Shown here piece after piece: positions 1 to 30,007 of a stretch of 64,000 bases of DNA. How positions within the stretch are numbered: position 1 is the stretch's first letter; the number at the start of each line of letters is the position of its first letter. The notes under the pieces were generated by a model. The model saw nothing but the letters and a program-made list of their open reading frames with translations, did no database searches and had not been told where the DNA came from. This stretch comes from Escherichia coli (GTDB lineage: Bacteria > Pseudomonadota > Gammaproteobacteria > Enterobacterales > Enterobacteriaceae), in assembly GCF_041886205.1 (NCBI RefSeq), contig NZ_CP169029.1, one strand, 5' to 3'. The translations under genes and the position numbers were made by a program.

Positions 1-121
1 ATTGAAAACGAAACGACATGCGCCTGCGAAGCGCCTCATTTCACGCTCCTGTTGACCACCGGGTCTTAACTGGAATTTAAATGCCTGTAGTCGTTTCACA
101 GGTCAAATTATATTTTGGTCT

Positions 122-688
122 GTGAAAAAAGAAACCGATATCCGGCGTGGAAGGCATTGTGTTTTCCTGAAGCATGTTCACATGGTCTTTGTCACCAAAT
201 ACCGACGCCAGATTTTTGACCATGACGCGACAGAAAAACTACGCACTTACTTTTCAAATGTATGTGCTGATTTTGAAGCTGAACTGGTTGAAATGGATGG
301 CGAACCAGATCACGTCCATTTGTTAATTAACTATCCTCCCAAACTGGCGATATCCAGTCTGATAAACAGCCTCAAAAGCGTATCGGGTAGGTTACTGCGA
401 CGAGATCGACCAGATATTGCAGTCAGGTATTACTACAAAGGCGTTTTGTGGAGTCCTGGCTATTTTGCCAGTAGCTGCGGAGGTGCGCCAATATCCGTCA
501 TCCGCCAATACATTGAACAACAGCAAACACCTGGTCAGGTGGAAAACCGCGCCTTATATCCCCGCCCTGAAGGACGGGGTTTTACGGCGCACCGGATAAA
601 TTCGCCTCACGGCATCAACCCATTGAACAGACGTTTTTTACGCGGCCCGGTCATTAAAGATTCCAGTTTCGCGACACAGGTTTTGTAG
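122..688 (+). CDS. IS200/IS605-family transposase TnpA (Y1 HUH enzyme); 188-aa ORF, likely with a C-terminal read-through extension
   Basis: Translation has the HUH motif (PDHVHLLI), a conserved Tyr in [15 protein letters not shown] and a [13 protein letters not shown] tail, closely resembling IS608-type TnpA; the ORF continues about 30 aa past the usual family end and overlaps lsrG antisense. Confidence 0.7.
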
Positions 689-897
689 TGGGGCGTGGTT
701 TTATGGAACGCCACTGCGTCTTCATCTTTATAGGCTTCGTAGATATAAAAGCGCGAATTCACTTCCGGGTCCTGTAAGACATCGAAGCGCAAATTGCCTT
801 CTTCCTGTACAGAGCCCAGGTGGTTCTGGCGAAAAACTTCGATAAACTCGTCAACCTTGTCTTCATGAACGTTAATTTCAACCAGTGTGACGTGCAT
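607..897 (-). CDS. lsrG: LsrG, phospho-AI-2 isomerase (96 aa)
   Basis: ORF translation [18 protein letters not shown]..., antibiotic-biosynthesis-monooxygenase-like fold; position downstream of lsrF; ORF-track start trimmed to MHVTL. Confidence 0.9.
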
Positions 898-919
898 GTT
901 TCTTCTCCTTAATCCGCAG

Positions 920-1795
920 TTACTGTTTTTCACTCAGATAGAGTTCATATGCCCGATCAGCCGTTTCGTTATGGTGTACCACCGCCTGTACGGCTTTCAT
1001 CATCGCCACCGGATGGTCAGACTGGAAAATATTACGCCCCATATCCACACCAGAAGCGCCCTGATCGATAGCCTGCCAGCACATTTCCAGCGCCTCGCGC
1101 TCCGGTAATTTTTTACCGCCAGCAATAACAATGGGTACCGGACATCCGGCAACAATCCGTTCAAAACCTTTATCGACATAATAGGTTTTGATAATTTGCG
1201 CCCCCATTTCAGCGGCGATTCGAGTCGCGAGCGAGAAATAACGCTGATCGCGCACCATATCTTTGCCCACGCCTGTCACGGCCATGGTCGGCATTCCCAC
1301 TTTCATTCCGGCATCAACCAGCTGAATAATATTTTTGATCGACTGATGTTCATATTCGCTGCCGATATAAACCTGCGCCGCCACCGCGCAACTGTTCAGG
1401 CGCACGGCGTCATCCATCGATAACGCCACGGCTTCATTACTTAATTCCGCCAGAATAGAGTTCGCACCTGACGCCCGCAGTACCACCGGCCTATTGGTCG
1501 CAGGGGGAACTACGCTGCGCAAAATGCCGCGCGTACACATTAATACATCGGCATGTTCAAACAGCGGGGCGATATTTATATCAATGCGTTCAAGTCCGGT
1601 AGTCGGTCCCTGAAAATAACCATGGTCAAAAGCCAGCATCACGGTTTTACCCGTTTTCGGATTAAATATCCGCGATAAGCGTGACTGCATTCCCCAATCC
1701 AGCGCACCGCAACCTTTCAGGGTAAAAGGGATATTTTTTTGCGGTTGATCGGTACGAAAATCTTTACCATCTTTAATATCGTCTAAATCTGCCAT
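920..1795 (-). CDS. lsrF: LsrF, 3-hydroxy-5-phosphonooxypentane-2,4-dione thiolase (aldolase-like), 291 aa
   Basis: Full-length ORF; class I aldolase-like sequence; operon context lsrACDBFG. Confidence 0.9.
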
Positions 1796-2855: not shown

Positions 2856-3848
2856 TTATGGCAATGGGTTATTGGCCCGACGCGCCAGCCACTCTTTAAT
2901 TTGCTGGCGATGCAGGCTAACGGAACGACCTACGACAACGACGATAAGTAGCGCACCGGAAAGGGCGCTGGACACCTGATTTGGCACTCCTGCCATTTGC
3001 AAACCTTGTTGCAAATATCCCACTAATAAAACCGCAATGGCGGTGCCGATAATGGAACCGGAACCACCATAAATATTGGCACCGCCAAGCACCACGGCGG
3101 TGATGGCGGGCATCAGAAACGACGCACCGAGATCGGAACGTGCTGAACCAAAATACGATACCAGCAGCACAGCGGCGACCGCAGACGCCAGCCCCGTCAT
3201 GGCATAGAGCGCACATAAGGTGCGGTTAACTGGAATCGCGCTATAAAGCGCCACGCGCGGGCTTTGCCCAATCAAAAACACATTACGTCCGGCATGGGTT
3301 TTATGCAGCCAGAGCCAGAAAACGAGGAGACATATCAGGAAGATAATCAGCGGAACGGGGAGCCCCAGCACATCCAGGTTAGCGAAATCTGTAAACGCCA
3401 TCGGGAATCCACCAATATCTTCGTACCCCGTCGCTCCGGCCATCCCGGAAAGCAGCAGGGCACTTCCGGCAAACAGATACAGCGTGCCAAGCGTAATCAC
3501 CAGCGGGTTAACTTTGGTATAGATAATTAATCCGGCGTTGATCAGCCCGCACAATACGCCGAGCAGTAAGGTCAGGAGTATCGCCAGCGGCATCGGCACA
3601 CCACTTTGAAACAGTACGCCCAATGCAATGGCGCAGAGGCCGATGGTCGAACCAAACGAAATATCGATCCCGCCACTGACAATCACCATCGTCAGCGGTA
3701 GGGCGACAATGCCAATGCAGATAAAGTCACTGGTGCTGAACAGCAACATATTGAGATCTAACATCCGCGGGTTAATTGCACCAAATGCGACAATCTCAAT
3801 AACGAGCAGTGCGGCAAGAGCCAGTTCCCAACCGTAGCGAATACGCAT
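2856..3848 (-). CDS. lsrD: LsrD, AI-2 ABC transporter permease (330 aa)
   Basis: Polytopic hydrophobic ORF; position between lsrC and lsrB. Confidence 0.9.
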
Positions 3849-6395: not shown

Positions 6396-6643
6396 ATTTC
6401 CCCTGTTCAGTTTTGCAGGTGAGTTTTGAACAAATGTATTTCTGCTTTTAATTTGTTCATAACCTTAGGTGGACATTGCACATATTTCCGACGAATAGAT
6501 CACAATTTATGCTATTTTGATTCTCCCGGTTGCGTTTGTTCATACTCGTAGAGTCAAACTGTGGTTGCCATCACAGATATAAATGCGCAAGAACTGAACA
6601 ATTGCATTAAAGATTTAAATATGTTCAAAGTGAAGAATGAATT
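6396..6643. promoter_or_regulatory. lsrR / lsrACDBFG divergent promoter region (LsrR- and CRP-controlled in K-12); candidate CRP half-site near 6484-6505
   Basis: Divergent gene arrangement; AT-rich 248-bp intergenic region; TGTGA half-site on the minus strand (...gaatagatcaca...). Confidence 0.55.
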
Positions 6644-9798: not shown

Positions 9799-12700
9799 AT
9801 GAATAGAATCTATCGCGTGATATGGAATTGCACCCTACAGGTATTTCAGGTCTGCTCGGAATTAACTCGCAGGGTAGGTAAAAAATCGACGGTTAATTTG
9901 CGTAAATCCTCTGGACTGACAACGAAATTCAGTAGATTGACGCTGGGTGTTTTGCTGGCACTAAGCGGTTCAGCGTCTGGTGCGAGTCTGGAAGTTGATA
10001 ATGATCAGATTACCAATATTGATACTGATGTTGCTTATGATGCCTACCTGGTTGGCTGGTATGGCACTGGAGTGCTTAATATTTTGGCTGGCGGTAATGC
10101 CTCCTTAACCACGATTACTACCAGCGTCATTGGTGGTAATGAGAACTCGAAGGGCACCGTTAATGTTTTGGGTGGCACCTGGCGATTGTATGATAGCGGA
10201 AATAATGCAAGGCCTTTAAATGTGGGTCAATCCGGAACGGGGACGCTGAATATTAAACAGAAAGGTCACGTTGATGGAGGATATTTAAGGCTAGGTTCCT
10301 CGACAGGAGGCGTCGGGACGGTCAATGTTGAGGGAGAGGACTCTGTTCTGACGACCGAATTATTCGAAATAGGGAGCTATGGCACAGGCTCATTAAATAT
10401 TACAGATAAGGGTTACGTCACGAGTTCAATAGTCGCCATTTTAGGCTATCAGGCGGGCGGTAATGGCCAGGTTGTCGTGGAAAAGGGCGGCGAGTGGCTA
10501 ATAAAAAATAACGATTCCTCAATTGAATTTCAAATTGGTAATCAAGGAACGGGGGAAGCGACTATTCGCGGGGGTGGGCTGATTACGGCTGAAAACACGA
10601 TTATCGGTGGCAATGCCACCGGTATCGGAACCCTGAATGTGCAGGATCAAGACTCTGTCATCACGGTACGCAGACTCTATAATGGATATTTCGGCAATGG
10701 CACAGTCAATATTTCCAATAATGGACTGATTAATAACAAAGAATATTCATTGGTGGGCGTTCAGGACGGTTCCCACGGTGTCATCAACGTGACCGATAAA
10801 GGGCATTGGAATTTCCTCGGAACAGGCGAAGCTTTCCGCTATATCTATATCGGTGATGCTGGCGACGGTGAACTTAATGTCTCGAGTGAAGGCAAAGTAG
10901 ATTCGGGAATTATCACTGCGGGGATGAAAGAAACAGGCACAGGCAACATTACTGTTAAGGATAAGAACTCCGTTATCACTAATCTCGGAACTAATCTTGG
11001 TTATGACGGCCACGGCGAAATGAATATCAGTAATGAGGGGCTTGTTGTCAGCAACGGAGGAAGTTCACTCGGTTATGGAGAAACCGGCGTCGGGAATGTC
11101 AGCATCACCACGGGGGGGATGTGGGAGGTCAATAAGAATGTCTATACCACCATTGGTGTTGCGGGTGTCGGAAACCTCAATATTAGCGATGGCGGTAAGT
11201 TTGTATCGCAAAATATTACTTTTTTGGGCGATAAAGCAAGCGGTATCGGCACACTGAACCTGATGGATGCGACATCATCGTTCGATACTGTGGGTATCAA
11301 TGTCGGTAATTTTGGTAGCGGTATCGTAAATGTCAGTAATGGTGCCACCCTTAATTCAACGGGCTATGGATTTATCGGAGGAAATGCCTCCGGTAAGGGG
11401 ATAGTTAATATTTCAACGGATAGTCTCTGGAATTTAAAGACATCATCTACTAACGCCCAATTGCTACAGGTCGGTGTATTAGGCACGGGTAAACTGAATA
11501 TTACCACCGGAGGTATAGTTAAAGCGCGTGATACACAGATAGCTCTCAATGACAAAAGTAAGGGCGACGTGAGGGTGGATGGGCAGAACTCTCTGCTTGA
11601 AACATTCAATATGAACGTAGGGACGACTGGCACGGGTACGTTAACCCTGACGAATAACGGCACGCTGAATGTTGAGGGTGGCGAAGTTTACTTAGGTGTT
11701 TTTGAACCTGCTGTAGGAACGCTAAACATTGGTGCTGCTCACGGTGAGGCGGCGGCAGATGCCGGGTTTATCACCAACGCGACGAAAGTAGAGTTTGGTT
11801 CTGGCGAAGGTGTTTTTGTCTTTAATCATACCAATAACAGTGATACCGGCTACCAGGTCGATATGCTGATTACGGGTGACGATAAAGACGGAAAAGTGAT
11901 ACATGATGCAGGCCATACGGTGTTCAATGCAGGGAATACTTATAGCGGTAAAACGCTGGTCAATGACGGCCTCCTGACCATTGCGTCACATACGGCAGAT
12001 GGGGTAACGGGCATGGGTTCGAGTGAAGTAACCATTGCAAGCCCCGGTACGCTCGACATTCTCGCATCAACGAACAGTGCAGGAGATTACACGCTGACCA
12101 ATGCGCTCAAAGGCGATGGCTTGATGCGAGTTCAGCTGTCATCCTCCGACAAGATGTTTGGCTTTACCCATGCAACAGGGGCTGAATTCGCCGGTGTTGC
12201 CCAACTGAAAGACAGTACCTTCACTCTGGAACGCGACAACACCGCTGCGCTTACTCACGCGATGTTGCAGTCTGACATTGAAAATACCACATCGGTAAAC
12301 GTGGGAGAGCAATCCATTGGTGGACTGGCCATGAATGGCGGTACGCTCATTTTCGATACGGATATTCCTGCTGCGACGCTTGCAGAGGGATATATCAGCG
12401 TCGATACGCTGGTTGTCGGCGCGGGTGACTACACCTGGAAAGGCCGTAACTATCAGGTAAACGGGACGGGCGACGTGCTTATCGACGTGCCTAAACCGTG
12501 GAATGATCCCATGGCGAATAACCCTCTGACGACGCTCAATTTGCTGGAACACGATGATAGCCATGTCGGCGTTCAACTGGTGAAGGCGCAAACGGTTATT
12601 GGGTCGGGTGGTTCATTAACGTTACGTGATTTACAGGGCAACGAGGTGGAAGCGGACAAAACGTTACATATTGCGCAAAACGGAACGGTGGTCGCCGAGG

Positions 12701-28779: not shown

Positions 28780-29646
28780 CTAAGCGAGGTTCTTGTTTTC
28801 AAATTGTTCCGGACTGAGGCCGCCACACCAACTGTGCCGCCGCCACCGATTGTAATCACATTCGATATAATTAAACACCGTTGCCCGCATTATTTCCCGG
28901 CTGATAAAGTGTTCTCCATGGATACATTCCACTTTCAGCGAATGAAAGAAGCTTTCCACGCAGGCATTATCGTAGCAGCAACCTTTTGCGCTCATACTTC
29001 CACGCAGATTATGCCGCTTCAGTTGCGCCTGATAATCTGCTGAACAGTACTGGCCTCCACGGTCCGTGTGAACGATAACGTTCCGGGGCCTCTTACGCCG
29101 CCACAGCGCCATCTGCAGGGCATCGCAGGCCAGTTGCGCCGTCATGCGTGGCGACATTGACCAGCCAATAACGGCACGTGACCACAGGTCAATGACCACT
29201 GCCAGATACAGCCAGCCTTCATCTGTACGTAAGTACGTGATGTCTCCTGCCCACTTCTGGTTCGGGCCACTGGCGTAAAAATCCTGCTCCAACAGATTTT
29301 CTGACACAGGCAGGCCGTTTGCGCGGTAGCTGACCGGGCTGAACTTCCGGGAGGCCTTTGCCCTCAGTCCCTGACGGCGCAGGCTTGCCGCCACGGTTTT
29401 TACGTTAAAGGGGTAACCCTGAGCACGCAGTTCATCCGTCAGGCGTGGGGCACCGTAACGCTGTTTTGACCGGGTAAAAGCCGCGAGGACAACGCTGTCG
29501 CAGTGTTGGCGGAACTGCTGACGCGTGCTTATCCTTGTCCGCCGCTGACACCACGTATACCAGCCGCTGCGGGCCACCCGGAGCACGCGGCACATTGCTT
29601 TGATGCTGAACTCAGCCTGATGTTTTTCAATAAAGACATACTTCAT
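28780..29646 (-). CDS. insF: IS3 OrfB transposase (DDE integrase domain), 288 aa
   Basis: Translation [32 protein letters not shown]...; DDE catalytic domain; overlaps orfA in the -1 frame. Confidence 0.85.
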
Positions 29647-29942
29647 TTCAGGCGCTTCGCGAAGTATGTCGCGGCCTTTTGGAGGATAGCCAGCTCTTCA
29701 TCCCGTTCTGCCAGCTGGCGTTTGAGACGTGCAATCTCGGTAGACATCTCCAGTTCACGTTCAGAAGACGTCTGCTGATTTTGCTGTTTACTGCGCCAGT
29801 TGTAGAGCTGTGATTCATACAGGCTGAGTTCACGGGCTGCGGCAGTAACACCGATGCGTTCAGCAAGCTTCAGGGCTTCACTGCGAAATTCAGGCGAATG
29901 CTGTTTACGGGGTTTTTTACTGGTTGATACTGTTTTTGTCAT
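29643..29942 (-). CDS. insE: IS3 OrfA (HTH and leucine zipper), 99 aa
   Basis: Translation [53 protein letters not shown]...; ORF-track start trimmed to MTKTV. Confidence 0.85.
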
Positions 29943-30007
29943 GTGAGTCACCTCTGACTGAGAGTTTACTCACTTAGCCGCGTGTCCACTATTGCTGGGT
30001 AAGATCA

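Follow-up and report, generated by a model that had tools for sequence, protein, structure and literature searches.

A Stop-Less and Most Likely Decaying tnpA in an IS609 Copy Directly after lsrG in Escherichia coli

Introduction

Near the start of a 64,000-nucleotide stretch of Escherichia coli DNA (contig NZ_CP169029.1 of assembly GCF_041886205.1; hereafter the window), an open reading frame (ORF) of 188 codons (positions 122-688, plus strand, GTG start) runs antisense into lsrG. What element carries this frame, why is the frame longer than those of its relatives, and does it encode a working transposase? The original prediction recognized an IS200/IS605-family tnpA with intact HUH and catalytic Tyr motifs, judged its frame to be about 30 codons over-long, and proposed that either its natural stop codon was lost or the end of the element abuts lsrG. 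The analysis reported here leads to the following reading: very probably, a copy of IS609 lies directly after lsrG, the stop codon of its tnpA has been lost, the resulting tail is accidental, and tnpA is most likely decaying. IS609 itself is already known, and RefSeq lists this locus as a tnpA pseudogene of the IS200/IS605 type beside a TnpB gene. What is mildly novel is the population-wide loss of the tnpA stop, accompanied by site-specific chimeric tails; our literature search for IS609 TnpA readthrough and for IS609 TnpB returned nothing.

The Element Is a Copy of IS609

The following features define the part of the element in the window and its immediate surroundings.

1..595, no strand: portion of IS609 inside the window, delimited by junctions compared with the empty site of K-12 and with 14 other IS609 copies.
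1..99, minus strand: tnpB from its GTG start (99..97) through codon 33, with the translation VKRLQAFKFQLRPGG... (VKRLQAFKFQ...); RefSeq has a CDS here.
94..127, no strand: inverted repeat over both divergent start codons (core arms 94-101/120-127; stem 94-107/114-127; loop 108-113).
607..897, minus strand: lsrG, intact, with its last 27 codons and stop antisense to the readthrough frame.

The family assignment and the intactness of both motifs are borne out. Residues 8-134 of the ORF product match Pfam Y1_Tnp (E 1e-40) as well as NCBIfam transpos_IS200, for which the score of 143 bits exceeds the cutoff of 55. When the product is aligned with TnpA of IS608 and further Y1 transposases of solved structure, its DHVHL (HUH) and IRQYIEQQ (Tyr) motifs coincide with H64/H66 and Y127 of IS608. 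The IS200/IS605 family is characterized by a Y1 transposase that combines an HUH motif with one catalytic Tyr, and the IS605 group by an accessory tnpB within the element. The original prediction saw no tnpB in the window, but the gene begins there at 99..1 on the minus strand and is cut by the left edge. Extending the analysis leftward, as had been proposed, recovered the boundary of the element and the full TnpB/InsQ, a 402-amino-acid RNA-guided endonuclease with HTH_OrfB_IS605, OrfB_IS605, and Cas12f1-like_TNB domains. The layout is of the IS605 type, with tnpA and tnpB divergently transcribed.

The whole element is 1747 bp long (window -1152..595; L001 3849-5595) and is 97-98% identical over 1747-1748 bp to IS609 copies in 5014 of 5426 E. 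coli genomes; complete E. coli genomes have a median of two IS609 places each. These copies include the one adjoining ydcO in K-12 (insQ and a tnpA pseudogene) and one in O157:H7, whose 143-amino-acid TnpA is named "IS200/IS605-like element IS609 family transposase" by PGAP. Relative to that O157 copy, the element in the window has 97.5% nucleotide identity and differs at 7 of 138 TnpA residues, which falls within the ISfinder convention for the same IS (more than ∼95% identity of element and transposase). The name IS609 as used here follows the PGAP naming and the near-identity to copies so named. An intact TnpA of 143 or 138 amino acids, ending in QQQTPG and a stop, is absent from the window copy because CAG replaces TAG at 536-538. 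A stop-less tnpA is nevertheless an allele state and no ground for exclusion from IS609, as the IS609 of K-12 is in the same state. Window positions 1-595 are thus the tnpA-side portion of an ordinary copy of IS609, a known E. coli IS of the IS200/IS605 family. The first kilobase of the window is also 100% identical to E. coli ET201, for which the order in RefSeq is tam, then on the minus strand a 402-amino-acid "RNA-guided endonuclease TnpB family protein," then on the plus strand a tnpA pseudogene ("missing C-terminus"), and finally lsrG and lsrF.

The inverted repeat at 94-127 is in the middle of the element and covers the GTG codons of both tnpB (99..97) and tnpA (122). A hairpin at 94-119 had been put forward as the left end of the element; its position between the divergent starts, inside the element, rules this out. 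The core arms, TTTCACAG and CTGTGAAA, extend to a 14-bp stem with a predicted RNA fold of -15.6 kcal/mol (z -3.8). In a covariation test across relatives, only the outer TTTCAT/ATGAAA was common, giving no support for a selected structure, and these shared letters are uninformative because both genes start Met-Lys anyway. The inner stem is confined to E. coli IS609; within E. coli, one pair of the repeat is broken in some copies (CAC opposite ATG). In Salmonella, IS200 has a stem-loop over the translation start of tnpA, and by analogy the stem at 94-127 may act as a translational occluder, on either mRNA, or as an operator.

Insertion between tam and lsrG

Of 5426 complete E. coli genomes, 29 (0.5%) carry the element as a clean insertion between tam and lsrG; the site is empty in K-12 and at least 3900 others. 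As stated in the original prediction, K-12 has no IS at this position: lsrG and tam are separated by 56 bp, and the alignment shows a clean 1747-bp insertion between ...GTAGATAAAACTG and ATAAATTCGCC... (boundary 595/596 in the window). At least 1438 complete genomes have the exact empty site, ...AAAACTG/ATAAATT... (the slash marks the insertion point), and ∼2466 have it in the K-12 version. The only apparent difference in the flank from that of K-12 (T/C) is a preexisting polymorphism, as at least 1438 genomes have the empty site with C. The filled site is therefore exactly the empty site plus the element, with no target-site duplication. The left end, at 595, is 11 bp from the stop codon of lsrG, and the right end and most of tnpB are to the left of the window. 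Both halves of the proposed either/or hold: tnpA no longer has its stop, with CAG instead of TAG at 536-538, and the element abuts lsrG; the antisense overlap of the ORF with the last 27 codons and stop of lsrG, at 607-688, is likewise as originally described.

A Ter-like core (GTTGTAACTA; L001 1974-1983, minus strand, equivalent to K-12 L002 5167-5176) is located between yneE and uxaB, ∼1.9 kb from the right end of IS609. We take it to be probably TerC, and its proximity places the insertion in the replication terminus region. In strain RMDEC465 (L014), the copy at the lsrG site groups with a copy at the yfeD site (MS1170; L007) instead of with other lsrG-site copies, and the two have a 1-nt deletion in common; these sequences suggest gene conversion between IS609 copies.

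By homology with IS608, TnpA would excise and integrate one specific strand as single-stranded DNA (PMC3201880). Insertion at this site would have occurred by such single-strand "peel and paste," 3' of TTAT on the minus strand of the window and without duplication of the target.

A Lost Stop Codon in tnpA

The reading frame of tnpA is divided as follows.

107..109, plus strand: ATT where the PGAP IS609 reference (143 amino acids) has its ATG start; outgroups also have ATT.
122..535, plus strand: conserved core of tnpA, 138 codons, HUH and Tyr intact, from profile matches and the family alignment.
536..538, plus strand: CAG (Gln) in place of the ancestral TAG stop, which is found in the IS609 of O157 and in O103, Salmonella, Photorhabdus, and Klebsiella.
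536..595, plus strand: 20 readthrough codons from the left end of the element; the same peptide occurs in E. coli readthrough proteins.
596..688, plus strand: 30 readthrough codons from the flank and the first in-frame stop, TAG (686-688); the tail differs at other insertion sites.

The frame ends ...CCT GGT TAG in O157 and reads CCT GGT CAG at 530-538 of the window. Relatives in other genera, identified in a protein search, are 138, 143, or 146 amino acids long and all end ...YIEQQQTP followed by G, S, or D. Because the homologous codon is TAG in the outgroups and the relatives are uniformly of these lengths, comparison indicates that TAG is ancestral and that CAG is derived by a T-to-C change. 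As a consequence of the change, the frame continues for 20 codons in the left end and for another 30 in the flank (596-685) and closes at a chance TAG; the TAA inside the ATAA target is out of frame with tnpA. A ribosome starting at GTG-122 would read all of these codons, the latter 30 antisense to lsrG and its flank, before the chance stop. The frame is indeed longer than those of the family, as had been seen, but relative to the 138-codon core with the same start the excess is 50 codons, 20 in the element and 30 in the flank, instead of about 30. Nor is there a family member with a naturally 188-amino-acid TnpA, as the natural protein has 138 or 143 residues.

Across E. coli, readthrough proteins range from 152 to 254 amino acids, with a common left-end peptide followed by site-specific tails (IKSAI at ydcO, INQAKRML... 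at the TetR site, and ISLEIIY... at yedK). The tail of 50 residues arose by chance, from a point mutation combined with the place of insertion, and is not an evolved domain. That the frame is open through the left end is uninformative on selection, as 19-20 stop-free codons are expected by chance in ∼40% of cases.

Loss of a start codon (ATG to ATT at 107) was also considered and ruled out, since Salmonella, Photorhabdus, and Klebsiella have ATT there too, which makes ATT ancestral. The outgroups start at an ATG equivalent to window position 122 (MK(K/N)ETDIRRG), a codon that is likewise ATG in some of the E. coli copies; by this comparison, ATG-107 is derived in E. coli and position 122 is the conserved start of the family. 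GTG-122 has no evident Shine-Dalgarno sequence and is a weak start. A scan of window positions 1-1000 for promoters yielded no sigma-70-like site, and PGAP flags this tnpA as a pseudogene. The locus should not be annotated as encoding a 188-amino-acid protein.

The Stop-Less Allele across E. coli

Alleles of the stop codon were counted with 31-nt megablast probes, and a match was scored only if the central base matched. In complete E. coli genomes, the CAG allele was found at 6619 places, spread over 4197 genomes; for TAG, the figures were 1582 places and 1410 genomes. CAG thus accounts for ∼81% of scored copies. Stop-less copies make up most of the IS609 in E. coli and are no peculiarity of the lsrG locus, which, together with the existing RefSeq annotation, removes the unusualness that the original prediction implied.

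The CAG allele is present at at least eight insertion sites, at some of them with an open frame, and both TAG and CAG are found at one and the same site in the case of TetR and likewise of yidH. A neighbor-joining tree of the element, which bears on whether CAG had a single origin, is a star without resolution and shows signs of gene conversion. Transposition, recurrent mutation, or conversion may each have spread CAG, and the element tree and site data fit the three alike. Regardless of route, roughly four-fifths of the IS609 copies in complete E. coli genomes are without the ancestral tnpA stop. From such copies, gene callers output "transposases" that vary from 152 to 254 amino acids and pollute protein databases.

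Decay or Function of TnpA

The tnpA gene of the window copy is most likely decaying, like that of the K-12 copy. Among E. coli copies, pN/pS of tnpA is 0.62, versus 0.13 between E. coli and Photorhabdus, values that are based on few substitutions; pN/pS of tnpB among E. coli copies is 0.33. Relative to the E. coli consensus, tnpA in the window has five nonsynonymous and no synonymous changes, one of which replaces Gly with Ser in a K-G-x-S motif whose Gly is present in at least 90% of 16 aligned TnpA sequences. Frameshifts interrupt tnpA in two and tnpB in one of six sampled lsrG-site copies. In K-12, tnpA of IS609 has an internal stop (TGA), and this IS609 is reported to be inactive and never transposed in mutation-accumulation lines (PMC2891674, PMC5009759). 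The catalytic Tyr is eight residues from the natural C-terminus and, judging from structures of IS608, on a mobile helix near that terminus, and a tail of 50 residues is therefore likely to be harmful. An AlphaFold model of the 188-amino-acid ORF is poor overall (mean pLDDT of 50); its values of 27-34 in the tail, the lowest of the model, are at most a weak indication of a predicted lack of structure there.

Several features run against decay. The window copy retains its HUH and Tyr motifs and an uninterrupted frame, its GTG is at the start position conserved in the family, and the presence of CAG at so many different insertion sites could mean that stop-less elements were mobile. Taken further, these features would make the extended ORF a working transposase, with IS609 having spread in its stop-less form and TnpA tolerating, or even being tuned by, a tail from the left end and flank. 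The predominance of CAG (6619 versus 1582 places, ∼81%) and its occurrence at at least eight sites are as expected under such a history, as are the uninterrupted ORFs at lsrG, TetR (ST3), ydcO (P0005, 168 amino acids), and yedK (P0011, 222 amino acids), and a metagenomic relative with 77% identity also reads through (P0081). However, most of the CAG counts probably reflect one old, vertically inherited copy at the ydcO site, and with both alleles at the TetR and yidH sites, a star-like tree, and signs of gene conversion, the spread of CAG need not have been by transposition. Many CAG copies have further stops or frameshifts, constraint on tnpA is relaxed, and the tail is likely to interfere, if structures of IS608 are a guide, and has no confident fold, though the whole model is poor. 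We consider a working 188-residue transposase unlikely. Decidedly unlikely as well, in our estimation, is the idea that IS609 proliferated stop-less with a C-terminus of TnpA composed of the left end and the local flank, such that each site sets the activity or stability of the protein. If true, it would amount to a built-in, site-dependent throttle and could account for the quiescence of most copies alongside continued purifying selection on tnpB.

Decay of tnpA remains the favored reading, and TnpB seems to be better retained than TnpA: among 15 sampled copies, tnpB is intact (402 amino acids) in 13, and tnpA is interrupted or stop-less in 13. A scan of the whole element against Rfam returned nothing above gathering score. 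Two matches below threshold, HgcC (23.6 bits; gathering score of 50) and RAGATH-18 (28.1 bits; gathering score of 44.9), fall at L001 3836-3964 on the minus strand. This region, outside the window, spans the 3' end of tnpB and the right end, which is the place expected for a TnpB guide (omega/reRNA).

Architecture of the Ends and Target

Three features on the minus strand compose the left end and its target.

560..579, minus strand: left-end subterminal imperfect palindrome (IPL), CCCCGTCC-TTCA-GGGCGGGG, eight pairs including one T.G.
580..583, minus strand: AAAA, the 4 nt 5' of the hairpin foot, putative guide sequence GL by analogy with IS608.
596..599, minus strand: TTAT target/cleavage tetranucleotide (ATAA on the plus strand), abutting the 595/596 boundary.

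The ends were compared in 15 IS609 copies (L001 and L003-L016) from nine insertion sites and in outgroups. In the orientation of the window, all 15 copies start with TTGACATCC on the tnpB side and end with ...GCGCACCGG. ATAA follows ...GCACCGG in each of the 15 and ...GCATCGG in a Photorhabdus relative, which is 79% identical and has the same ends; flanks at the tnpB-side end are variable. In all 15, insertion is 3' of the tetranucleotide that abuts the left end, with no target duplication at the tam/lsrG site, and the element has no inverted terminal repeats and has subterminal hairpins on one strand at both ends, all of which are characters of the IS200/IS605 family. Reading along the minus strand, the left end consists of TTAT, the cleavage point, 16 nt, and the left imperfect palindrome, with the 16 nt fixed in all copies. 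The right end has a look-alike palindrome, with the consensus CCACGCCC-TGAA-GGACGTGG on the same strand as the left-end hairpin, followed by 10 nt ending in TCAA. This minus-strand layout of ends is the architecture of IS200/IS605 elements (PMC3201880).

The plus-strand form of the left-end hairpin is CCCCGCCC-TGAA-GGACGGGG, with TTTT after it (580-583). The original prediction had called this hairpin and T-run, with coordinates that were off by about 3 nt, and offered a subterminal hairpin or a terminator as its role. The hairpin is real and occurs only once in the window, where chance alone would give 0.01 matches. It is conserved in every one of the 15 copies from E. coli as well as in Photorhabdus and Klebsiella. 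Its single-stranded DNA fold is -14.2 kcal/mol on the minus strand versus -12.7 kcal/mol on the plus strand; it is slightly more stable on the minus strand, the active one, where the mismatch is a T.G pair. Conserved in all copies at a fixed distance from the cleavage site, the structure at 560-579 is the subterminal hairpin of the left end. This palindrome would be bound by TnpA, and the AAAA beside it, if it acts as GL does in IS608 (GL of AAAG and CL of TTAC; PMC3201880), would pair with the TTAT cleavage/target site.

If instead the hairpin and T-run (560-583) were mainly an intrinsic terminator, of tnpA or of the convergent lsr operon, they would not need to mark a transposon end. The G+C-rich 8-bp stem is followed by TTTT on the sense strand of tnpA, and RNA of positions 545-600 is predicted to fold with -23.1 kcal/mol (z -2.5), both in keeping with termination. 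But a scan with a consensus terminator made no call at the hairpin, which has only four T's, and on the strand sense to lsr the hairpin is followed by ATATAAGG and no T-run. A terminator would also leave unexplained why the opposite end of the element has a look-alike hairpin on the same strand and why the distance to the cleavage site is fixed at 16 nt, both of which conform to IS200/IS605 ends. A mainly terminator function is quite improbable, though the left-end hairpin may have a secondary role as one.

The ends vary among copies. The right-end hairpin (L001 3849-3885, ∼1.1 kb left of the window) occurs in two variants among IS609 copies, and that of the window element, GAATGACGAGGAT, folds poorly as single-stranded DNA (-6.5 kcal/mol, z -0.7) relative to the O157 form (-10.7 kcal/mol). 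Given this weaker predicted hairpin, the window copy may be a poor substrate for TnpA. At the left end, one E. coli copy (yidH site; L009 2100-2147) and a Klebsiella plasmid relative (L020 about 2960-3000) have GGGGATATAAGGCGC instead of GGGGTTTTACGGCGC, which makes a nearly perfect 19-bp palindrome from which the AAAA "guide" is gone.

A REP-associated tyrosine transposase (RAYT) matches the RAYT profile and is a single conserved copy in the chromosome with REP sequences on its flanks. The chance that the gene is instead a Y1 transposase of this or another kind that has been domesticated and conserved in the chromosome, with its lsrG overlap fixed, is vanishingly small: the match to NCBIfam REP_Tyr_transpos is weak (25.5 bits, far under the cutoff of 80, versus 143 bits for transpos_IS200), and population data refute this reading, as the gene is at the tam/lsrG site in only 29 of 5426 genomes with at least 3900 empty, its copies at that site are decaying, and it is multicopy at variable sites and lies between IS609 ends together with tnpB.

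Surroundings of the Insertion

In one account, lsrACDBFG-tam is a single transcription unit (PMC8085971). The element parts tam from the lsr operon and leaves lsrG intact; downstream of the AI-2-induced lsr promoter, tnpB is sense and tnpA antisense. A terminator scan called no terminator-like site at the junction of the element and lsrG. We infer that the insertion could matter for expression of tam and TnpB in the few strains that carry it.

Elsewhere in the window, according to the RefSeq annotation of ET201, are a frameshifted autotransporter gene of the ECSE_1600 family, two IS1B, and a fragment of an IS3 transposase (9809-15227, 18317-19013, 19787-20041, and 29302-29999). By the same annotation, one IS1B cuts a fimbrial gene, beside a fragment of an AraC-family gene.

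Relationship to Known Elements

The element is most like the other IS609 copies of E. coli, at the insP/insQ locus by ydcO in K-12 and the TetR site in O157:H7, with which it has in common divergent tnpA and tnpB, the ends TTGACATCC ... GCACCGG, and a TTAT target. Like K-12 IS609, it has CAG at the stop position; unlike K-12 IS609, it has no internal TGA, and its frame is open into the flank. The O157 reference has ATG-107, TAG, and 143 amino acids, whereas the window copy has ATT-107, GTG-122, and CAG. Its location at tam/lsrG and five private amino acid changes further distinguish it from other IS609.

Beyond E. coli, the element resembles IS608 and IS605 of Helicobacter pylori in having a Y1 HUH transposase, subterminal palindromes on one strand, and insertion at a tetranucleotide without duplication. 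Its gene order, with divergent tnpA, resembles that of IS605, and it shares with IS608 a right end that closes with TCAA at 10 nt from the hairpin foot. It differs from IS608 in target (TTAT versus TTAC), in the sequence 5' of the left hairpin (AAAA versus AAAG), and in the distance from cleavage site to hairpin foot (16 versus 19 nt), and its TnpA is a recognizable but distant relative of that of IS608 (phmmer E 6e-19). Salmonella IS200 has a transposase of the same family and, unlike IS609, no tnpB; the stem at 94-127 would resemble the stem-loop that covers the start in IS200, although in relatives of IS609 only 6-7 bp of the stem are kept. ISDra2 of Deinococcus radiodurans is of the same family and likewise combines TnpA and TnpB, and its target pentanucleotide by the left end reportedly doubles as the target-adjacent motif of TnpB.
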